Notes under the pieces: model-generated
What the model was told of the DNA's origin: nothing
Database searches by the model: none
Seen by the model: the letters and a program-made list of their open reading frames with translations, nothing else
Made by a program: the position numbers and the translations under genes
From: Cytophagales bacterium
Lineage (GTDB): Bacteria > Bacteroidota > Bacteroidia > Cytophagales > ES-bin-26
NCBI GenBank assembly: GCA_014379925.1
Contig: JACMKY010000006.1
Location: forward strand, 1-54,018
Reading direction: 5' to 3'
Length of the DNA: 54,018 nt
In this document: piece by piece, positions 1,872-24,266 of the stretch
Position numbering within the stretch: position 1 is the stretch's first letter
Layout of the letters: each line of letters starts with the position of its first letter

Positions 1872-3956
1872 TCAACTTACCGTTCCGCCGTTGACGATCG
1901 GTTTTTCGGGATTCACGAAGGAGAGGGTGCCGTCCCCGTCCTCGGCCATCAAAATCATCCCCTGCGACCGGATGCCCTTGATGTCGCGGGGCGCCAGGTT
2001 GGCCAGCAGGCACACCTGTTTGCCAATGATGTCGGCCGGCTGGTGATGCTCGGCGATGCCGCTGACCACCGTGCGGGTATCCAGGCCGGTATCCAGGGTC
2101 AGTTCGAGCAACTTCTTGGTTTTGGGCACCGGCTTGGCCGCCACGATGGTCGCCACGCGGATGTCCAACTTGGTGAAATCGTCGAAGACCACTTCCGGCT
2201 TGGCGGGCGGCAGGACTTTACTGACCATTTCGTTTTGTCGCTTGTTATCCGACAACTTCCGCACCTGCGCTTCCACGGCATCGTCCTCGATCTTTTCGAA
2301 CAGAAGTTCGGCCGGTCGAAGGGTTTGTCCCTCGGGCAACAGGTCCGGTCGGCCCGTCGCGTTCCAACCGGCGGTTTTCAGTTGCAGCATCTCCGATAGC
2401 TTGCGGGCGGTGGAGGGCAGGAACGGCTCGGCCAGAATGGCCAGATTGGCCGAAATCTGCAGGCCGATGTTCAGGATGGTCGCCACCCGTTCCTCGTCCG
2501 ACTTGATGACTTTCCAGGGTTCGGTATCCGCCAGGTATTTGTTGCCCAGCCGCGCCAGGTCCATCAGGTGAGCCAATGCCTCACGGAAGCGGTAATCCTC
2601 GAGGGAAGCGGCAATCCTGCCCGGAAAGTCCACCAGTTTGTCCAGCGTCTCCCGGTCGAAATCGGTTAATTCTCCCCGCGAAGGGGTTTTCCCTCCGAAG
2701 TACTTGTGCGTCAGCACCACGGCGCGGTTAACGAAGTTGCCCAGAATCGCCACCAGCTCGTTGTTGTTGCGGGCCTGGAAGTCCTTCCAGGTGAAATCGT
2801 TGTCCTTGGTTTCGGGGGCGTTGGCCGTGAGCACGTAGCGCAGCACGTCCTGCTGGCCGGGAAAATCGCGCAGGTATTCGTGGAGCCACACCGCCCAGTT
2901 GCGCGAGGTGGAAATCTTGTTGCCTTCCAGGTTGAGGAATTCGTTGGCCGGCACGTTTTCGGGGAGAATAAAATCGCCGTGCGCCTTAAGCATCACCGGA
3001 AAAATGATGCAGTGGAACACGATGTTGTCCTTGCCGACGAAGTGCACCAGCTGCGTATCCGGACTTTTCCAGTAGGGTTCCCACGCCGCTTCATCCTCCG
3101 GCTCCTTTTTTCCGGACGAGGCATTCTTCCCCAAAAAATAATCTTTGGTGGCGGAAATGTAGCCGATGGGGGCGTCGAACCAGACGTAGAGCACCTTGCC
3201 TTCGGTGTCGGGCAGCGGCAGGGGCACGCCCCAGTCCAGGTCGCGGGTGACGGCGCGGGGTCGCAGGCCCTGGTCGATCCAGGACTTGCACTGGCCGTAA
3301 ACGTTGGTTTTCCACTCGGTGTGTCCTTCCAGAATCCATTCGCGCAGCCAGCCTTCGTAGCGGTCCAGCGGCAGGTACCAGTGCTTGGTGGGTTTGAGCA
3401 CGGGTTTTTCGCCGCTGAGCATCGAGACCGGTTGGATGAGTTCGGCGGGCGAGAGCGTGGAGCCGCAGTTTTCGCACTGGTCGCCGTAGGCGCTGGGGAA
3501 GCTGCACACCGGACACGTGCCCTGGATGTAGCGGTCGGCCAGGAATTGCTGCGCCTTCTCGTCGTAGTACTGCTCGCTCACCTGCTCCACGAAATCGCCC
3601 TGCTCGTAGAGCACCCGAAAGAAATCCGAAGCCGTTTGGTGGTGGGTGGCGTTGGAAGTGCGCGAGTAGATGTCGAAGGCAATGCCGAATTCGCGGAAGG
3701 AATCCTTCATCATGGTGTGGTACTTGTCGACCGCCTGCTGCGGGGTGATACCTTCCTTCTGCGCCCGGATGGTGATGGGCACCCCGTGTTCATCGGAGCC
3801 GCACACGAACAGCACGTCCTTGCCCCGCAACCGCAGGTAGCGGGCGTAAATGTCGGCGGGAAGGTAGGCGCCCGCCAGGTGGCCGATGTGTACGGGCCCG
3901 TTGGCGTAGGGCAGCGCCGCCGTGACGGTATATCGCTGGAAGTTTTTTTTGGTCAT
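1872..3956 (-). CDS. metG: methionine--tRNA ligase with C-terminal tRNA-binding (Trbp111/EMAP-like) domain
   Basis: 694 aa. N-terminal class-I signature [14 protein letters not shown], zinc knuckle CPVC...CENC, KMSKS-equivalent NKISTSR. C-terminal segment [25 protein letters not shown] is typical of the tRNA-binding domain. Confidence 0.97.
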
Positions 3957-4188
3957 AATGGTTAGTCCACGGACGGTGTTCCCTAGCCAGGGGCAAAGAC
4001 GGCGGACCGGGGTTGCGCGGACGGTGGATTCGGTTGGAAGACGTTGGTTAAGCCAGCAAAATTACGGAAAGTAGGGGAGAGCGCAGAATGACGGCGGTTG
4101 CTACCGGGAAAATAGCGGACTTCCCGGGGACGTTGCGGTGGGTTTATATCCAGGCGGAGCCGTGCTTCACTGACTTCCTCCGGAGACG

Positions 4189-4449
4189 ATGAATAATCAT
4201 CAGAAAAACGTTCGATCAACCGTGAAAACCAACCCGTTCCCCTCCGTCTTTCTTGCCGTTTTTCTCATCCAGGGATGTATTTCCACCAAGAACGCGACGT
4301 TGCTGGGGGCTACCGTGCAGCGGATTTCTTTTAACGTGGCCTACCACGTACCGTTTCCCGCCTTGGGACACGTGGTTTCCGTTGGCACGGGTTACCGGTG
4401 GGAGCCCGTGCCGTGGCAGCTTTCGGGTTTTCGGGAAGAACCGATGTAA
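4189..4449 (+). CDS. possible small lipoprotein (86 aa)
   Basis: The only ORF in the 3957-4658 gap with a recognisable signal: FLAVFLIQGC is a lipobox-like motif after a basic N-terminus. No family recognised; could be spurious in GC-rich DNA. Confidence 0.3.
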   Translation: MNNHQKNVRSTVKTNPFPSVFLAVFLIQGCISTKNATLLGATVQRISFNVAYHVPFPALGHVVSVGTGYRWEPVPWQLSGFREEPM

Positions 4450-4603
4450 AGAGGATAAAAGCAAACCGCCAACCCAAAACAACCAACCCAGGCCGACCCA
4501 CCCATCCAAAAGTACCGTTCCGAATGCGGGGTAACGCCTTCCGACGACCGATTCCTCGCGCAAGAAGTAACCAGCGCGTGGTCCGTCCCGATTCACGGGT
4601 TGC

Positions 4604-4656
4604 GGCGCCCAACGCCCGTCCGTTTCGACTGCCGAAGCGAACGGGCGTTGGGCGCC
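4604..4656 (-). repeat. long GC-rich hairpin just after the stop of the 4659..4997 gene (terminator-like; termini GCCCAAC/GTTGGGC)
   Basis: 16 perfect bp (GGCGCCCAACGCCCGT / ACGGGCGTTGGGCGCC), then one mismatch, then 7 more pairs (one G.U), with a 5-nt loop. Begins 2 nt from the stop codon at 4659-4661. No U-tract follows on the minus strand. Confidence 0.6.
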
Positions 4657-4658
4657 TC

Positions 4659-4997
4659 TCAAGCCACCCAAAAAGCGGCGATGCAAGCCGCCAACACCGT
4701 GAGCGCAATCAGGCTGCGGTAGGTCCGGGTACTTAGCGCGCGCGTTCGGTTGGCAGCGGTAAGTGCGGAAATGGCAACCAGGATGGCCGTTTTAGGAATC
4801 ACTTTGTAGTAATTCACCGCGGGGTAGCGCAGCCAAACGAGTAGACCGCCCGTAATCAGCAATGCCACGCCGCACCCCAGCATGAGCCGGTTGGTTCGCT
4901 TCGTTTTTTCCCGGTAGCGCACCAGCAGCGTGGCAAAATAGCGCAGAAAAGCCCCGAAGTGAACCAGGAGAACCCCGTTCAGCGCCGTCGTTTTCAT
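4659..4997 (-). CDS. small integral membrane protein (about 4 TM segments)
   Basis: 112 aa, almost entirely hydrophobic helices. 4-nt ATGA overlap with the upstream gene suggests an operon. Confidence 0.7.
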   Translation of the reverse strand: MKTTALNGVLLVHFGAFLRYFATLLVRYREKTKRTNRLMLGCGVALLITGGLLVWLRYPAVNYYKVIPKTAILVAISALTAANRTRALSTRTYRSLIALTVLAACIAAFWVA

Positions 4998-16369: not shown

Positions 16370-16507
16370 GCTGAGATCGGCAAAGCGTTTGCGCGACGGT
16401 ACGGCATACCTTTTTTCCGCGCTGCCAGTATGCTTCAACCGACGGTGGGTTTCCGGAGCGTGGAGGAAGCGCGGATGAATCCGGTGAAGTCATCGCGAAC
16501 CCAATAA
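16370..16507 (+). pseudogene. 3'-terminal remnant of a second FtsX-type permease gene
   Basis: Encodes ...TVGFRSVEEARMNPVKSSRTQ*, compared with ...TVSFQSVKAARMNPVKSLRTE* at the end of the intact paralog. DNA at 16456-16507 is clearly homologous to 18859-18910. Nothing permease-like lies upstream. Confidence 0.6.
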
Positions 16508-16519
16508 ACCAATCCAGTC

Positions 16520-18910
16520 ATGCTGCGCAACCATTTCAAAATCGCCTGGCGGAACCTGACCAGAAACAGGGTCTATTCGGTCATCAACATTTTTGGCCTG
16601 GCAACTGGTATGGCCGTTGCCATCCTCATCGGCTTGTGGCTGTACGACGAATTTTCCTACGATACCCATCACCAGAACTACGACCGCATCGCGCAGGTGA
16701 TGCAAAACCAGACGTTTGATGGCGAAGTCCGCACGTGGGACAATCAAGCCATGCAACTCGGACCCGAACTTCGCGATTCGTACGGCAACCACTTTAAATA
16801 CATCGTAATGGCGTCCGGGACCAATGACCACATTCTGTCAGCGGGCGAAAAGAGGCTAAACAAAAGTGGTGCGTACATGGAACCCCAAGTGCCCGACCTG
16901 TTGACGCTGAAGATGTTGAAAGGAACGCGGGCGGGCTTGAATGACCCCAGTTCCATTTTGCTCTCAGAGTCAGTTGCCCAATCATTTTTTGGGGATGCCG
17001 ACCCGGTGGGTGCGTTGATGAAGATTGACAACAAACTGATTGTGAAAGTCACCGGGGTCTACGAAGACCTGCCCCGTAATTCATCTTTTGCTGATCTGAC
17101 GTTCATTGCCCCCTGGGAACTGCTGATCAAAAGTGAGGAGTTCGACAAGAAGCTGACCTGGGGCAACAGTTGGTTCCAAACATTCGTCCAGGTGACCGAT
17201 CAAGCCGACATCGGCAACGTTTCGGCAGCGATCAAATACGCTAAACTGAATCGCCTCAGAAAAGAAAAAACGGATGATGTTCGATCCAAGCCGGAACTCT
17301 TCCTGCATCCTATGAGTCGCTGGCATTTGTACGGCGAATTCAAAAACGGAGTCAACGTAGGTGGCCGGATACAGTACGTATGGATGTACGGGACCATTGG
17401 GGTATTCGTCCTGTTGCTGGCCTGCATCAATTTTATGAACCTGAGTACGGCCCGCTCCGAAAAAAGGGCCAAGGAAGTGGGTATTCGGAAAGTGGTCGGT
17501 TCAGCCCGTAGCCAACTGATCAGCCAATTCTTTACCGAGTCAATCGTAGTGGCCTTGCTGGCCTTTGCCCTGTCGTTGCTGTTGGTGCCGCTCGCGTTGC
17601 CCTTGTTCAACGAGACCGCCGACAAAAAGATGGAGATGCTGTGGGCCAATCCCTGGTTCTGGCTGACCGGCATCGGGTTCAGCCTGATAACGGGCTTGAT
17701 CGCCGGCAGTTATCCAGCCCTTTACCTGTCGTCTTTTGTCCCCGTTAAAGTGTTGAAAGGCACCTTCCGGCTGGGTCGTTTGGCGGCACTTCCCCGTAAA
17801 GCCCTGGTTGTCGTGCAATTTACGGTTTCCATCACGCTCATCATCGGCACCGTCATCGTTTTCCGCCAAATTCAGTTCACCAAAAACCGGCCGGTTGGCT
17901 ACAGCCGCAACGGCTTGTTGACCATTCCCATGCAAACCGAAGAGGTTCGCCAGGGATACGAGGCCTTGCGCAACGATTTGCTCGGAACGGGGGCAGTAGT
18001 GGAACTGTCCCAATCGGAAAGCCCGGTAACCAACGCCGGAATAACGAACGGTGGTTTTGAGTGGCGGGGTAAAGCGCCCGGTATGCAGGATGAACAGGTT
18101 ACCGTTGGCGTCACGCACGAATTCGGCAAAACGGTGGATTGGAAAATCAAGGAAGGGCGCGACTTTTCGAGGGCGTTTGCCACCGACTCATCCGGTTTTA
18201 TCCTCAATGAAGCCGCCGTGAAATACATGGGTTTCGACCAGCCGCTCGGGGAGCAGGTCAAGGCTTTTGGCCGAACCTACACGGTAATCGGGGTGGTCAA
18301 AAACATGGTAATGCAATCGCCCTACGAAGCAGTGGGTCCCATCATTTTCTACATCGATGCCTTCAAACGGACTAATTTCATCAACGTGAAGATCAACCCG
18401 CGGACCAGCGTCAGTGAGGCCTTGGCGACCATTGGAACGGTCTTCAAGCAGCACAACCCCACGACGCCCTTCGAGTTTAAGTTCGCCGATGACGCTTACG
18501 CGGCCAAGTTTCGCTCGGAGGAACAGGTTGGTCGGTTGGCCCGTTACTTTTCAGGGCTCGCCATTTTCATCAGTTGCCTGGGTTTGTTTGGTTTGGCCTC
18601 CTTCACGGCTGAGCAACGCACCAAGGAGATTGGGGTTCGCAAGGTGCTGGGCGCGACGGTCATCAACCTGGTAACGCTGCTCTCCGGGGATTTCCTGAAG
18701 CTGGTATTGGTTGCCCTCCTGATTGCTACGCCGTTGGCCTGGTATTTTCTTTCCGGTTGGCTCCAAGCGTATGCGTACCGCACTGACCTGGCGTGGTCGG
18801 TATTCGCCCTGTCCGGGCTGGGAGCGGTTGGCATCGCCCTGCTGACGGTGAGTTTCCAGAGCGTGAAGGCCGCGCGGATGAATCCGGTGAAATCGTTGCG
18901 AACGGAATAA
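16520..18910 (+). CDS. ABC transporter permease, FtsX/MacB-like (two FtsX domains, about 800 aa type)
   Basis: 796 aa. Canonical N-terminus MLRNHFKIAWRNLTRNRVYS, MacB-type periplasmic domains, two 4-TM FtsX modules, and the C-terminal MNPVKSLRTE tail. Confidence 0.92.
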   Translation: MLRNHFKIAWRNLTRNRVYSVINIFGLATGMAVAILIGLWLYDEFSYDTHHQNYDRIAQVMQNQTFDGEVRTWDNQAMQLGPELRDSYGNHFKYIVMASGTNDHILSAGEKRLNKSGAYMEPQVPDLLTLKMLKGTRAGLNDPSSILLSESVAQSFFGDADPVGALMKIDNKLIVKVTGVYEDLPRNSSFADLTFIAPWELLIKSEEFDKKLTWGNSWFQTFVQVTDQADIGNVSAAIKYAKLNRLRKEKTDDVRSKPELFLHPMSRWHLYGEFKNGVNVGGRIQYVWMYGTIGVFVLLLACINFMNLSTARSEKRAKEVGIRKVVGSARSQLISQFFTESIVVALLAFALSLLLVPLALPLFNETADKKMEMLWANPWFWLTGIGFSLITGLIAGSYPALYLSSFVPVKVLKGTFRLGRLAALPRKALVVVQFTVSITLIIGTVIVFRQIQFTKNRPVGYSRNGLLTIPMQTEEVRQGYEALRNDLLGTGAVVELSQSESPVTNAGITNGGFEWRGKAPGMQDEQVTVGVTHEFGKTVDWKIKEGRDFSRAFATDSSGFILNEAAVKYMGFDQPLGEQVKAFGRTYTVIGVVKNMVMQSPYEAVGPIIFYIDAFKRTNFINVKINPRTSVSEALATIGTVFKQHNPTTPFEFKFADDAYAAKFRSEEQVGRLARYFSGLAIFISCLGLFGLASFTAEQRTKEIGVRKVLGATVINLVTLLSGDFLKLVLVALLIATPLAWYFLSGWLQAYAYRTDLAWSVFALSGLGAVGIALLTVSFQSVKAARMNPVKSLRTE

Positions 18911-20119: not shown

Positions 20120-21007
20120 ATGCAACTCCTCACGCCTGCCCATTGGCAAGCCTACCAATTGATCGATTCGGGCGGTTTCGAGAAACTGGAGCAGTTCGGC
20201 GACTACGTGCTGTCCCGCCCCGAGCCCCAGGCCGTGTGGGATAAGTCGCTGCCGGCAGGGGAGTGGGAACGGCGGGCGCACGCCTTTTTTCGCAAGGAGA
20301 AAAACAACCCCGAAAAGGGACAGTGGGAGCCCAAACCAGGGATGCCCGAACACTGGCGCTTGCCCTACCGCCACGCCGGGCTGGACTTGACGTTCAGCCT
20401 CTCGCTTTCGTCCTTCAAGCACGTGGGCCTCTTTCCCGAGCAGGCCGCCAACTGGGACTACATCTACGAGAAACTAAGGGCTATCCAAGCCCACGTGGCC
20501 CAGCCCCGGGTACTGAACCTGTTTGCCTACACGGGCGGGGCCTCGCTGGCGGCCAAACAGGCCGGGGCCGACGTCTCGCACGTGGATTCGATGCGGCAGG
20601 TGGTAAGCTGGGCGCGCGAAAATATGGAAGCCAGCCGCCTCGACCACATCCGCTGGGTGGTGGAAGACGCGCTCAAGTTCGTGAAGCGGGAAGCCAGGCG
20701 GGGCAACGTCTACCAGGGCATCATCCTCGATCCGCCCGCCTACGGACGCGGTCCCGACGGTGAAAAGTGGGTGCTGGAGGAGCACATCAATGAACTGCTC
20801 AAGCTGAGCAGTCAACTGCTCGACCAACGGCACCACTTCTTTCTCCTCAATTTGTACTCGCTGGGCTTCTCGGCCCTGATCGTGCAGAACCTGATCGACT
20901 GCTGCTTCGGCCGGGTGCAGCACCCCGAATACGGCGAGTTGTATCTGGAAGACGGCTTCCGGAAAAAGCTGCCGCTGGGCGTGTTCTACCGGTTTGCCAG
21001 TGAGTAA
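20120..21007 (+). CDS. class I SAM-dependent methyltransferase, RlmI/RlmK-type (PF10672-like)
   Basis: ORF track gives 19817..21007, but the N-terminal 101 aa are Arg/Cys-rich junk. ATG at 20120 gives MQLLTPAHWQAYQLIDSGGFEKLEQFG. SAM motif VLNLFAYTGGASLAAK and DPPAYGRGP. Confidence 0.85.
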   Translation: MQLLTPAHWQAYQLIDSGGFEKLEQFGDYVLSRPEPQAVWDKSLPAGEWERRAHAFFRKEKNNPEKGQWEPKPGMPEHWRLPYRHAGLDLTFSLSLSSFKHVGLFPEQAANWDYIYEKLRAIQAHVAQPRVLNLFAYTGGASLAAKQAGADVSHVDSMRQVVSWARENMEASRLDHIRWVVEDALKFVKREARRGNVYQGIILDPPAYGRGPDGEKWVLEEHINELLKLSSQLLDQRHHFFLLNLYSLGFSALIVQNLIDCCFGRVQHPEYGELYLEDGFRKKLPLGVFYRFASE

Positions 21008-21017
21008 CGGTCAGTGT

Positions 21018-21130
21018 TCAGCCGTCATTTATGGAACAATAATCGGGAAGTGAGAAGAGGATAAGTGTCTGAATATGAACAATTAATGCTATTTTGTTGG
21101 TGCATTTCCGTCTTACGAATTGACGGCTGA
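21018..21130. repeat. 10-bp inverted repeat (TCAGCCGTCA / TGACGGCTGA) bracketing a 93-bp AT-rich segment
   Basis: Arms at 21018-21027 and 21121-21130. Starts 11 nt after the methyltransferase stop. The interior is the most AT-rich stretch I noticed in the window. Confidence 0.7.
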
Positions 21131-21477
21131 TCGCTGATGGATACTTCCTGGCAAAGGAATACGACAAGTTCATCAAGGAAAACTTGTCGGCGCTTATCGT
21201 TCCGCTGACCCGCCAGACGCGGCAAATCGAAGCGGTCGCGTGCGAGGTGCTGCCCGACAAACCGGAACCCCCGTTGGAGGGGGTGGCCCCGCCGACTTCG
21301 GGCAGCGGATTACCACGAAAGAGGAGCAATGGGGCCGTGACTGATTACCCCATCATAAAGACGGGAAGGGTGATTTCAAAATTACGCGGCCTTGTTAAAG
21401 GCCTCCGGGATGAGATGAGTCAGCTTACTTTTGAAAGCGACCCTGAGTTTGAGCAGCTGTCGTGCTCGTTATGCTGA
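21130..21477 (+). pseudogene. ORF without an in-frame ATG; possible 5' remnant of an Rpn/PD-(D/E)XK-type putative transposase gene
   Basis: The frame is open from 21130 with no ATG; the track uses TTG at 21184. EYDKFIKENLSALIVPLTRQ resembles the YDKIFKEN... N-termini of Rpn-like proteins (recalled, unverified). The rest has no recognisable similarity. Confidence 0.25.
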
Positions 21478-21564
21478 CCAACGTTGCCCGGAACGATTCA
21501 TTCGATGTTGGATCAGTGTGCGGTGAACCGCCTCGATGACCCTCGAATCAATGCAAAAACTCGC

Positions 21565-22066
21565 CTATAGCCACGGTTTTATTCCACAAGTCGCCGGTTT
21601 CACGGTGTGGTCGAGGTAGCTGTTCATCGACTGGCTCATTATGCTTCGCATGGCTTCGTCGTTAAGCGTCTGGCTCTGCTGCTGCAAAGCGCCGCATTGG
21701 ACTTGCTCGGGTCAATCATACCCTTCATAATGGCGTACACGCTGGTCACCTCGCCCTGTGCCGGTGAAAGGTTTGCCAATTAGGCTACCCATCATGGCCA
21801 GCGGGCTGCGCTGGGTGCTGGGGCCCTGGCTGTCGTAGGCCAGCTGCAGGCCGCCCCCGTTCACCTCCATGGCGACGCGGTCGTAGGTAACTTGCAGATT
21901 CCGGGTGTTGCCGGCGGCCTGCACGGCAAATGTGCTGTCCATAGTCAGGTCCTAACTCATCTTCGCGCCCTGGGACTCCATGTTCTGCTTGGTATTTTTT
22001 AATGCGTGAAAATTGTATCTCAGTCATTTTGCTCCAATGCCATACCACTGGCGAAACTGAATACAC
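21565..22066 (-). pseudogene. multiply frameshifted remnant of a conserved hypothetical gene (DUF6263-like?)
   Basis: Coding-looking peptide continues across three minus-strand frames: ...NLQVTYDRVAMEVNGGGLQLAYDS...LIGKPFTGTGRG / EVTSVYAIMKGMIDPSKSNAAL / QQQSQTLNDEAMRSIMSQSMNSYLDHTVKP. At least two frameshifts and an internal stop. Confidence 0.4.
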
Positions 22067-22085
22067 GCAACTTCTTAAATGATTC

Positions 22086-22130
22086 GCTGTTTCCGCCTCA
22101 TGTCCAATGACTTGGTGGGCAGCGCGTTTG
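22086..22130 (-). repeat. copy A of the 45-nt cassette-associated arm (half attC-like)
   Basis: 40/45 identical to 22764-22807. Lies 35 nt downstream of the VOC gene stop (22166). Heptamer is GGTGGGC instead of GTTGGGC. No outer partner arm found. Confidence 0.6.
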
Positions 22131-22165
22131 GTTGAAACACGTTGTCTTCAAACCGACTCGGAACG

Positions 22166-22609
22166 TCATCTGCTCGGTAACTGCTCGATGCCGATGATGT
22201 TGCCGTCCGGGTCTTTAAACCACGAAACCTTGAAGCCGGTTTGGTCGCTATACACGCCGTTCTCTGTCTTCAGGTCGGGCATGTCGTATTCCTCGAAGGA
22301 AACGCTCCGACTTCGGAGGTCGGACATTACCTCATCGAGGTTCTCGACGAGGAAGGTTGCAACCGAGTATTCGGCGGTGGAGTGCTGCCGCTCGTAGAGA
22401 TTAAGCATTGTTCCCCCACCAGCTTGATAATACACTCCGCGCCTCTCGTCCGATATTGCCGCCTTCAAGCCAAGTGTTTCCTCGTAGAAACGTCGGGCGC
22501 GTTGGAGGTCAGTCGTGGGAACGGTTGCACAGACGAGCGCATTCGTGAGCAGAGTCGAAGCCTTCTCTCGTTGGGCTTCCTCATTGGCTTCGCTGTTTTC
22601 AGTTGTCAT
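22166..22609 (-). CDS. VOC-family (glyoxalase/bleomycin-resistance/dioxygenase fold) protein
   Basis: 147 aa. TVPTTDLQRARRFYEETLGLK...FKDPDGNIIGIEQ is a typical VOC beta-alpha-beta-beta-beta module pair, preceded by an acidic N-terminal tail. Confidence 0.85.
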   Translation of the reverse strand: MTTENSEANEEAQREKASTLLTNALVCATVPTTDLQRARRFYEETLGLKAAISDERRGVYYQAGGGTMLNLYERQHSTAEYSVATFLVENLDEVMSDLRSRSVSFEEYDMPDLKTENGVYSDQTGFKVSWFKDPDGNIIGIEQLPSR

Positions 22610-22682
22610 ATCGTTCTCATTCGCTCAAATGGATGCTTTTACAAAAGTGGTTTCTCTATCGGCGCATCCGGCTCAACCGATA

Positions 22683-22800
22683 GCCGCCCAACGACCGAAT
22701 TGACGCGGGTGAAACCGCCAACACGTAACATCAGGTTTAACGGACGACGTTTTTAAGAAAGTTGCTGTTTCGCCTCGCGTCCAATGACTTGTTGGGCGGC
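22683..22800 (-). repeat. 118-nt imperfect hairpin with attC-like architecture
   Basis: Outer helix: GCCGCCCAAC (22683-22692) pairs with GTTGGGCGGC (22791-22800). Then a 5x5 internal loop. Second helix: ATTGACGCG (22699-22707) pairs with CGCGTC(C)AAT (22776-22785), with one bulged C. T22775 is bulged. Third helix: GGTGAAAC (22708-22715) pairs with GTTTCGCC (22767-22774). The centre is ~51 nt and variable. Confidence 0.5.
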
Positions 22801-22832
22801 GCGTTTGACGTGGCGAGCCGCCTCCTAATTTA

Positions 22833-23111
22833 CTAAATATGCCAGTCCGCCGCGCGCTTTTGCATTTCTTCGGGCAATAGGTATTCGAGGTGCGTGGCGA
22901 AGAACCACGAATGCCCGAACGGGTCTTCCAGCACCGCCATAAAGTCGCCGTGAAACTGCTCCTCGGGCGGTCTTATCACTTTAGCTCCTGAGGTCTCGGC
23001 TTGCTGCACCAGAGCATCTACGTCGTTCACATAAATGATACTATTCACGAGCGTTCCGTCGACCGACTGCGGACTGAAAAAGTCCATCTCTAAAATCTCG
23101 TCGCGTATCAT
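22833..23111 (-). CDS. short/truncated VOC-family (PhnB/glyoxalase-like) protein
   Basis: 92 aa. VNDVDALVQQAETSGAKVIRPPEEQFHGDFMAVLEDPFGHSWFFATH is the C-terminal VOC module only. An in-frame stop 12 codons upstream of the ATG excludes a longer N-terminus. Confidence 0.6.
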   Translation of the reverse strand: MIRDEILEMDFFSPQSVDGTLVNSIIYVNDVDALVQQAETSGAKVIRPPEEQFHGDFMAVLEDPFGHSWFFATHLEYLLPEEMQKRAADWHI

Positions 23112-23222
23112 TATCGATGGCGGAAGGCCTGAATATTCAACTGATCAGCAAGCTTACCCGCCGGAGTATGAAAAACTTGAAAGATTTGCAAAAATTCGTA
23201 GTCCTCCGCGTGAGGGACCTTC

Positions 23223-24266
23223 CTACACCACGTTTACCTCGGCTTGCAAGGCAATGCCAAACTTGCCGGCCACCGAAGCCTGCACCCGTTCCGACAGCCG
23301 CTGGATCTCCGCCCCGGTTGCCTCACCGTAATTGACCAGCACCAACGCCTGTTGCGCGTGTACGCCTGCGTTGCCTACCCGCTTGCCCTTCCAGCCGCAC
23401 TGTTCGATGAGCCAGCCCGCCGGAACTTTCACCTGGCCCGCCGGCGCGGGGTAGTGGGGAACGGTGGGATGCTGGCTCCTCAACCGGTCGAACGCAGCCT
23501 CGTCCATCTCCGGGTTTTTGAAGAAGCTCCCGGCGTTGCCGATCTGGTGCGGGTCGGGGAGCTTGCTGGTGCGGATGCGGCAGACCGCCTCGCTGATGGC
23601 GCGGATGGAAAGGTTCGCGCCCATCTCGCGCAACGTGTCCGCGATGGCCCCGTAGGAAGTGTGGAAAACGGGCTGCTTGTCCAGCCGCAGCGTCACGCTG
23701 GTGATGATGTACTGGCCCTTGAGGTCGTGCTTGAACACGCTTTCGCGGTAGCCGAAACGGCAGTCCGCGTGGCCGAACGGGCGGAGCGAGCCGTCGGAAA
23801 TTCGTACCGCCTCCAGTTCCTCGAACACGTCCTTGATCTCCACGCCGTAGGCCCCGATGTTCTGCATCGGCGCCGCACCCACCGTACCCCAGATCAGCGA
23901 AAGGTTTTCGATGCCCGCGTAGTCGTGGTCGAGGCAGTGTACCACCAAGTCGTGCCAATTCACGCCCGCCCCGGCCCTCACCCACGCGTGCGCGTCGTCT
24001 TCCCGAACCGTCTGAATGCCCGGCAAGTTGATTTTCAATACCAGGCCGTCGAAGTCGCGGGTGAAGAGGAGGTTGCTGCCCCCGCCCAGCACGAGCTTGT
24101 CCATCGGCCCGTAGACGGGGGAAGTGAGCAACGCCCGCAAGTCTTCCAAGCGGGTGATCTCGGCGAAATGGCGGGCGTTGGCTTCAATACCAAACGTGTT
24201 GAAGCGCCGAAGCGAAACGTTGTCAGTTATCAATGATCCGTTATCAATTAAGCCCGACTTGCGCAT
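23223..24266 (-). CDS. murB: UDP-N-acetylenolpyruvoylglucosamine reductase
   Basis: 347 aa. FAD-binding domain (LGGGSNLLF) plus MurB C-terminal domain (GSFFKNP...AGWLIEQCGWKG...HAQQALVLVN). Confidence 0.95.
   Translation of the reverse strand: MRKSGLIDNGSLITDNVSLRRFNTFGIEANARHFAEITRLEDLRALLTSPVYGPMDKLVLGGGSNLLFTRDFDGLVLKINLPGIQTVREDDAHAWVRAGAGVNWHDLVVHCLDHDYAGIENLSLIWGTVGAAPMQNIGAYGVEIKDVFEELEAVRISDGSLRPFGHADCRFGYRESVFKHDLKGQYIITSVTLRLDKQPVFHTSYGAIADTLREMGANLSIRAISEAVCRIRTSKLPDPHQIGNAGSFFKNPEMDEAAFDRLRSQHPTVPHYPAPAGQVKVPAGWLIEQCGWKGKRVGNAGVHAQQALVLVNYGEATGAEIQRLSERVQASVAGKFGIALQAEVNVV

Follow-up and report, generated by a model that had tools for sequence, protein, structure and literature searches.

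A probable integron cassette-array fragment of Acidobacteriota type in a Bacteroidota chromosome

Introduction

The bottom strand of an integron attC site folds into an imperfect hairpin, in which the R and L boxes are the binding sites of the integrase IntI and two extrahelical bases are read by it. Cleavage by IntI falls between A and C within the 5' AAC, and a cassette, delimited at G|TT, is cut out and inserted as a unit. Here we describe a short locus on contig JACMKY010000006.1 of a Cytophagales bacterium (phylum Bacteroidota; assembly GCA_014379925.1), in which two minus-strand genes of the VOC family, VOC92 and VOC147, are each followed by an attC-like element, termed attC_B and attC_A, respectively. 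The whole stretch that was analyzed, positions 1 to 54,018 of the contig, is referred to as the window. We consider it highly probable (roughly 85%) that about 22050-23116 is a broken piece of a cassette array, of the type found in sedentary chromosomal integrons of the Pyrinomonadaceae, which lies in the Bacteroidota chromosome between murB and a decayed host gene.

The layout of attC sites has been described by Nivina et al. 2016 (PMC5027507). The bottom strand carries an R' box, 5'-RYYYAAC, and an R'' box, 5'-GTTRRRY, together with an unpaired central spacer of 5-6 nt. The extrahelical bases lie opposite the AAC; position 16 in L'' is usually a G, a conserved T occupies position 23 or 24, and the two are separated by a 6-bp stem. 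Sites range in length from 57 to 141 bp, and the terminal structures of those in chromosomal integrons are long. Taxon-specific models of attC sites are available for 11 taxa, among them the Acidobacteria (Ghaly et al. 2021, PMC8352920). For the Bacteroidetes, earlier finds had been limited to In0 elements, to which one complete integron, that of Salinibacter ruber, was then added (PMC9024848). The same work accepts cases with a single attC site as possibly true. An earlier note on this DNA had called integron-type cassettes little documented in Cytophagales, which is fair in the light of that survey.

Results

A candidate intact attC site behind a truncated VOC gene

attC_B lies 32 nt past the stop codon of the open reading frame (ORF) 22833-23111 and is about 118 nt long (121 nt in the comparison of cassette partners). 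Its outer helix of 10 bp, GCCGCCCAAC (22683-22692) with GTTGGGCGGC (22791-22800), contains the fully paired R' box GCCCAAC (22686-22692) and R'' box GTTGGGC (22791-22797), and both heptamers match the consensus RYYYAAC/GTTRRRY, as the earlier note had pointed out. In the adjoining internal loop, GACCGA (22693-22698) stands opposite GACTT (22786-22790), which gives unpaired spacers of 6 and 5 nt on the two arms and thus the 5-6 nt that are typical of attC sites. A second helix of 9 bp pairs ATTGACGCG (22699-22707) with CGCGTC (22776-22781) and AAT (22783-22785), leaving C22782 bulged; the 3-bp L box, L' ATT (22699-22701) with L'' AAT (22783-22785), is part of this helix. T22775 forms the second bulged base and is followed by an inner helix of 8 bp, GGTGAAAC (22708-22715) with GTTTCGCC (22767-22774), which encloses a variable center of 51 nt (22716-22766). 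The helices, bulges and 51-nt center of the 118-nt hairpin first outlined at this place were thus re-read as they had been given, except that the internal loop is 6x5 and not 5x5.

Counted from the R'' 3' end, GTTGGGC takes up positions 1-7, GACTT positions 8-12 and AAT positions 13-15, followed by C22782 at 16, CGCGTC at 17-22 and T22775 at 23. The two extrahelical bases are accordingly carried by the arm that faces the AAC and are separated by a 6-bp stem, and their assignment to the R''-L'' arm in the earlier note agrees with the published layout at positions 16 and 23. Compared to attCaadA7 and VCR (PMC5027507), attC_B shares the R'/R'' consensus, the spacer, extrahelical positions 16 and 23 and the 6-bp stem; its 118 nt fall inside the range of 57-141 bp, and its terminal structure is long, as in chromosomal integrons. 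It differs from them by a C at position 16, mostly C throughout its family but usually G in the known sites, and in that its family is known from sequence alone.

As single-stranded DNA, the plus strand of attC_B folds exactly into the hairpin described above (-31.9 kcal/mol, z = -3.6, with none of 200 shuffles as good), whereas the fold of the minus strand is weaker (-28.4 kcal/mol, z = -2.45). The location of the extrahelical bases marks the plus strand of the window as the predicted recombinogenic bottom strand, in which cleavage would be expected to fall between A22691 and C22692. Taken by itself, attC_B still looks recombination-competent. Both attC elements lie 3' of minus-strand cassette ORFs, and the arm that they share starts 25 nt past the stop codon of the first gene and 35 nt past that of the second, exactly as had been reported; the next ORF begins 73 nt beyond attC_B rather than the 74 nt stated before. 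A permissive Rfam search of 21000-24000 returned matches at chance level only, and Rfam contains no attC family.

Arrays of the attC_B family adjoin integrase genes in Acidobacteriota

A first exact scan of 185,579 species genomes with the pattern TCCAATGACTTGKTGGGC gave 47 loci; by our own estimate, about 35 matches would arise by chance for a pattern of this length. About 20 of the 47 share the longer arm and, some 118 nt upstream of it, a partner arm that matches, and nearly all of these are labeled Acidobacteria, Pyrinomonadales or Blastocatellia. From attC_B and 12 relatives we built a covariance model, R1, with explicit R box, spacer, L box and bulged-stem structure. R1 scores attC_B at 114.6 bits (E = 4e-30) on the plus strand versus 20.3 bits on the minus strand, and the former value falls within the range of most array copies (76-131 bits). 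The integron reading in the earlier note had hinged on a match to an attC model; the match found here is strong, and it was obtained with the family-specific R1 rather than with the model of IntegronFinder. attC_A is found at E = 0.0013, and no further convincing attC was detected by R1 in the window with filters off.

In the Acidobacterial loci, R1 detected same-strand arrays with a spacing of 0.2-2 kb, comprising nine copies in L003, six in L024, five in L009 and four each in L008, L002 and L033. A second, more specific scan with CCTCRCGTCCAWTGAHTTGTT yielded at least 120 loci, and 76 of the 80 that were listed belong to the Acidobacteriota, mostly to the Pyrinomonadaceae. A complete Pyrinomonadaceae chromosome carries about 24 copies within 8 kb at one place (L243) and 12 at another.

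The structure is also supported by covariation. Across 46 aligned family copies, fitted to R1 and therefore biased toward its structure, 89.5% of the pair cells are standard pairs. Double changes were counted in 117 cells, compared to 35 +/- 5 after shuffling of columns and no more than 30 in slid controls, and compensatory changes of this kind occur in 17 of the 25 pairs. AAC and GTT are near-invariant and the conserved T is present in about 43 of the 46 copies, while position 16 is mostly C, sometimes G or A.

Using tblastn with IntI1 as a probe only, we found IntI1-like genes (46-54% identical) adjoining arrays in six loci (L300, L241, L313, L288, L277 and L298). Four are full-length, that of L277 is split into two segments and that of L298 is cut by the end of the locus. 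In all six, both the side of the array and the strand are those expected if the window plus strand corresponds to the attC bottom strand. In L300, four attC sites are followed by a first cassette ORF and, after a gap of 177 nt, by the integrase gene (3124-4077), whose product, the one of the six that was tested, reaches 462 bits on the NCBIfam model TIGR02249 'integron integrase' (cut-off 265). The link to an integrase emerged with the second scan. Scanning the first 20 Acidobacterial loci for tyrosine recombinase motifs gave no match, and at the array ends inspected in eight Acidobacterial loci no integrase was present, only an IS630-like transposase in L003. There, two adjacent minus-strand ORFs (L003:15-1177) end the nine-cassette array, and we take them to resemble an IS630-family transposase; the pair would be an insertion sequence in or at the edge of a Pyrinomonadales integron array. 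Same-strand arrays beside intI are thus a feature of the attC_B family, but not of the window with its lack of a detected integrase, and these findings identify the Acidobacterial arrays as predicted integrons.

Single copies of the family (103-111 bits) were also observed in Leptolyngbya sp. Cla-17 (L232:119-240), a Chloroflexia metagenome-assembled genome (MAG; L231:3229-3350) and an Ardenticatenia MAG (L295:91-211). The stretches fetched for these three contained no second copy, and they may represent further stranded cassettes.

Two VOC cassettes, one cut within its gene and one within its attC

Both minus-strand ORFs match Pfam Glyoxalase PF00903, which bears out the earlier description of two VOC genes; the first of them, however, is incomplete. 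ORF 22833-23111 encodes only the C-terminal 92 residues, which align to residues 63-154 of PhnB-like VOC proteins of 154 aa, and lacks its first 62 codons. Its full-length homologues (74-79% identity, 154 aa) include one from a Pyrinomonadaceae MAG, and its PF00903 match spans profile positions 74-119 of 121 only. blastn of this region against L142 and L146 begins at query position 186-187, equal to about 23115 of the window. Homology at the DNA level to full-length PhnB-like genes hence sets in near 23116; further upstream, the sequence in the same frame is unrelated and interrupted by stop codons. This places the break of the first cassette within its gene, some 106 nt past the murB stop codon.

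The VOC147 cassette consists of a leader (22610-22691), an intact ORF of 147 aa with a VOC/glyoxalase fold (22166-22609) and the remnant of its own attC. Its DNA matches the metagenomic contigs L134 (88% identity over 610 nt) and L137 (84% identity), and in both cases the match sets in exactly at GTTGGGC/GTTAGGC, behind which the upstream sequence is unrelated. Across G|TT, the cassette adjoins attC_B in the window, an unrelated attC of 73 nt in the case of L134 and, in L137, a sequence that is no attC, so that the same cassette is found behind different partners, as expected for a cassette boundary. Correspondingly, the right-hand GTT and the left-hand AAC do not change across the aligned family, and the bases to the left of the AAC vary (GCCC, GTCT, GAGC, TTTT, GCCG and others), as would be expected if they belong to the neighboring cassette. 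Taken together, the boxes and geometry, the covariation, the strand asymmetry, the arrays beside integrases elsewhere and the cassette homology that starts at G|TT identify 22683-22800, as judged from sequence, as an attC site.

Against L134, VOC147 has a dN/dS of 0.13, which suggests that the gene is under purifying selection. More distant homologues (L128, L131 and L133; 73-83% identity) are not flanked by the attC_B family. In L137 (1762-2420), and likewise in L136 and L138-L141, the VOC147 cassette is flanked by genes for an amidohydrolase and a PTR2/MFS transporter on contigs of 56% GC. The L137 copy is joined at G|TTAGGC to the non-attC sequence, its own attC also seems to be without the R'-L' arm, and this locus may be a second, independent stranding of the cassette.

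attC_A is located 40 nt past the stop codon of the VOC147 gene. Its R''-L'' arm (22086-22120) is entire but bears the heptamer GGTGGGC instead of GTTGGGC, at a place where L134 and L137 have an intact box (GCCCAAC); the inner-stem strand GGCGAAAC is retained at 22050-22057 and the center is shortened. The R'-L' arm, the bearer of the AAC cleavage site, is missing. The retained strand, the altered heptamer and the lack of an outer partner arm had already been taken as signs of decay, and on these features attC_A is best described as a predicted decayed site. The arm shared by the two elements (22091-22130 and 22768-22807) is 88% identical over 40 nt; stretched to 45 nt it shows 5 mismatches and 1 indel, counted from the sequence, in keeping with the 40/45 identity given before. 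No third copy of it occurs anywhere in the window.

Host context and extent of the presumed foreign DNA

The coordinates of the locus and its neighbors are summarized in Table 1. The fragment has a GC content of 0.53 and a GC content at third codon positions (GC3) of 0.66, as compared to a GC3 of 0.82-0.84 in murB and in the rlmI-like and icmF-like genes. Neither end of the foreign DNA coincides with a crossover point, as one is inside a gene and the other inside an attC. What remains is an intact attC and, at a distance of about 560 nt, a half-site, and no integrase was detected in the 54 kb.

Table 1 Features of the cassette fragment and its surroundings (window coordinates)
Feature	Position	Strand	Basis
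3' part of PhnB-like VOC cassette (VOC92)	22833..23116	-	homologue alignments; attC_B as its own attC
attC_B, predicted intact integron attC site	22683..22800	+	sequence, DNA fold, model R1, family covariation, geometry compared with PMC5027507
VOC147 cassette	22050..22692	-	begins at the crossover G|TTGGGCGGC (T22691 downward)
attC_A, predicted decayed attC	22050..22125	+	R1 20.7 bits, left-arm pairs unmatched; intact box in L134/L137
Conserved cassette leader, about 60 nt	22625..22685	-	precedes the start codon of VOC147
Presumed foreign DNA, about 1.07 kb of cassette array	22050..23116	.	homology limits, GC content, no flank homology
murB, host gene, upstream neighbor on the cassette strand	23223..24266	-	best relatives Cytophagales MurB, 58-63% identity
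Short ORF, sub-threshold DUF6263	21712..21942	-	PF19777 22.8 bits (cut-off 26.7), profile 3-51 of 196

The short ORF on the other side encodes 76 aa at a host-like GC content of 0.58-0.60. It is probably a decayed host gene that borders the insertion, and its state suggests that the insertion or later deletions damaged it. The flanks 21008-22060 and 23112-23225 gave no blastn or tblastx match to any fetched locus and were treated as host DNA on the basis of their GC content and the weak DUF6263 match. Neither tblastn with IntI1 (E <= 1e-4) nor a motif scan detected a tyrosine recombinase in the window, which upholds the statement of the earlier note on the lack of an intI-like gene; intI, attI and attC are thus not found together at this locus. 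ARAGORN detected no tRNA in the window, which argues against a tRNA-linked island.

We also compared the surroundings of murB in 80 genome and 80 metagenome loci, in which the best MurB proteins were 63-65% identical. The best matches were to Cytophagales (Roseivirgaceae, Larkinella, Thermoflexibacter and Runella), and none of the 160 loci carries either of the two VOC genes, this attC, the rlmI-like gene or the icmF-like gene. The VOC genes are therefore not conserved neighbors of murB, and a conserved synteny, which would have spoken for immobile genes, is not seen among these distant relatives. As synteny is not conserved at MurB identities of at most 65%, the comparison is uninformative with regard to a recent gain.

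A conserved leader ahead of cassette genes

The leader of the VOC147 cassette starts right after the R' box, and the same element precedes unrelated cassette ORFs in six other contexts, among them L146, L023, L313, L297 and L236. Its positions elsewhere are L146:1892, L023 (minus strand, about 1930-2000), L313:2105-2166, L297:4740-4798, L236:91-151, L271:221-282, L134:940 and L136:3711. It contains a 7-bp hairpin (CTATCGG/CCGATAG) with the loop GGATGC, which is complementary to GCATCC about 20 nt downstream, and a pseudoknot 10-30 nt ahead of the ribosome-binding site would be possible. In eight sequences, 4 of the 6 putative pseudoknot pairs show compensatory change, compared to at most 1 in slid controls; the sample is small, and the structure was derived from these same eight sequences. 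The compensatory changes occur in L236, L313 and L023, while L134 breaks the pairing. The leader had no match in Rfam and is sporadic, with 4 matches of a model, R2, in 100 array loci. That it is a previously undescribed structured element, traveling with integron cassettes and common to unrelated Pyrinomonadaceae cassette genes, is an idea that we put forward tentatively and with considerable doubt. If the leader gave promoterless cassettes their own expression or translational control, this would help to explain purifying selection on a stranded VOC147.

Other repeats in the window

At 4602-4657, a near-perfect GC-rich palindrome, GGCGCCCAACGCCCGTCCGTTTCG...CGAACGGGCGTTGGGCGCC, has GCCCAAC/GTTGGGC ends and overlaps a mechanically called 156-aa ORF (4216-4686, minus strand). 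It was considered as a third attC and rejected, being a perfect hairpin without spacer or bulges (R1 E = 0.43). A 67-nt direct repeat with 85% identity, whose copies lie 2.4 kb apart (16441-16507 and 18844-18910), probably marks paralogous genes. Between 50709 and 53010, seven copies of a 34-nt unit, 68-76% identical to the reference copy and mostly spaced 159-180 and 423 nt apart, suggest a gene for a protein with internal repeats.

Discussion

Our findings suggest that a piece of a cassette array was stranded between murB and a decayed gene of a Bacteroidota host. Read along the minus strand, it would comprise the last 60% of a PhnB-like VOC cassette, an intact attC_B, a complete VOC147 cassette and the R''-L'' half of attC_A. 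Both ends lie inside a gene or inside an attC, hence the locus would be a broken fragment and not two inserted cassettes. Since these ends are off the crossover points, the sequence points to a capture by illegitimate recombination, or to erosion by later deletion, rather than to an insertion of this exact piece by IntI. In the genome of the window the fragment would be inert as a mobile element, and VOC147 would not be excisable because attC_A is without the arm that bears the cleavage site. A transfer across phyla is suggested by the taxonomic distribution of the attC family together with the composition of the fragment.

An alternative entry route shares most of these steps. Insertion at secondary sites is a known activity of IntI, and an integrase may have inserted the cassettes at a secondary (non-attI) site downstream of murB, with subsequent loss, by deletion, of the first cassette's 5' part and of the last attC's outer arm. 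The VOC147 cassette of L137, which abuts a sequence unlike an attC at G|TT, would fit such an event, and the decayed look of the adjacent DUF6263-like ORF speaks for deletions in this region. However, neither of the present boundaries is at a G|TT crossover, two additional deletion events would be needed and no integrase is seen in the window. We therefore regard this route as unlikely; it differs from the illegitimate capture of a broken array piece in the mode of entry alone, and the present data cannot separate the two. It appears quite improbable that the locus is still part of a working integron, that is, the distal end of an array or a second cassette cluster with intI outside the window. 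In its favor, attC_B is intact and scores like the array copies, only 54 kb of the genome are visible, and attC clusters served in trans have been described in the integron literature. Against this stand the lack of any other copy of the family in the 54 kb (R1, filters off), flanks formed by murB on one side and by host-like DNA followed by an rlmI-like methyltransferase gene on the other, and a composition unlike that of the host; moreover, with the upstream cassette cut inside its ORF and attC_A devoid of the cleavage arm, neither end is a recombination junction. The suggestion that the locus might be the edge of a larger array accordingly finds no support in the 54 kb, in which the unit lies between murB and host-like DNA.

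The remaining explanations do without a cassette array in this chromosome. An assembly artefact, in which Acidobacterial reads were joined into a Bacteroidota contig, might be considered since the window possibly stems from a metagenome assembly and the nearest relatives of the fragment belong to another phylum. A chimeric join would, however, produce a single breakpoint and not a 1.07-kb insert with host-like DNA on both sides in a 54-kb contig; the GC content of 0.53 is intermediate rather than donor-like (0.39-0.45), and the decay mutations of attC_A are not seen in the metagenomic copies. Such an artefact is very improbable in our view. Arm and hairpin could also be a repeated extragenic palindrome or a transcription terminator of the host, unrelated to integrons, and both an intergenic hairpin downstream of genes and the GC-rich GCCCAAC...GTTGGGC palindrome elsewhere in the window would be compatible with it. 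Yet there are only two copies of the arm in the window, both behind VOC genes, which had been named as the pattern that distinguishes it from a generic repeat; the hairpin has no T-run and no Rfam match, the palindrome at 4602-4657 lacks the spacer and bulges of attC_B, and the attC_B family forms arrays beside integron integrases in another phylum. The chance that this explanation holds is close to negligible.

Several points weigh against a broken array piece of Pyrinomonadaceae origin. The contigs L134 and L137, with the closest VOC147 cassettes, have 56-57% GC compared to 39-45% in the Pyrinomonadaceae arrays, so the immediate donor may not belong to this family, but may be a different carrier of the same attC family. 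A C at position 16 is the sole departure of attC_B from the layout in PMC5027507, and R1 is a family-specific model rather than the generic attC model of IntegronFinder. The insertion is deduced from composition and homology and not from an empty site, and the available murB relatives are distant. As the visible genome amounts to 54 kb, an integrase could be encoded elsewhere, and recombination of the attC_B family by any IntI is a prediction. Finally, VOC147 would probably be transcribed by read-through from murB, upstream on the same strand, which is purely an inference.

With regard to the described systems, attC_B belongs to the same family as the attC sites of about 120 nt that form Pyrinomonadaceae arrays beside intI, and in this it resembles the attC sites of Acidobacterial sedentary chromosomal integrons (PMC8352920). 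The window copy differs in that it is placed in a Bacteroidota chromosome, outside arrays and with no integrase detected in the window; its identity with the Acidobacterial attC class is inferred from taxonomy and our own model R1, not from the published model. The locus also shares an attC, cassette genes and the lack of a nearby integrase with clusters of attC sites lacking integron integrases (CALIN; PMC9024848), and the earlier reading as a remnant of this type agrees well with an intact attC_B, a half-site in attC_A and an integrase-free window. The default of IntegronFinder 2 is two attC sites, whereas the window has one intact site and one without its arm, with both ends broken inside features, and the locus might be reported as a CALIN only at a lowered threshold. 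For the Bacteroidetes (PMC9024848), it adds an integron-derived element to the phylum, but as a foreign remnant it is not evidence for a native Bacteroidota integron.

The fragment would thus represent integron cassettes that left both their native integron and their phylum, an ordinary trace of gene transfer across phyla. A family of attC sites that is otherwise almost entirely restricted to Acidobacteriota would have become fixed in a chromosome of the Bacteroidota, in which integron elements are rarely reported. The single copies in a cyanobacterium and in two genomes of Chloroflexi type hint that such leakage of cassettes may be recurrent. For annotation, a taxon-specific attC model can be used to trace the source of an orphan accessory gene. 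The broken ends indicate that the integrase is not the only route by which cassette genes can spread, and the intact and seemingly constrained VOC147 suggests that stranded cassettes can persist as ordinary genes.

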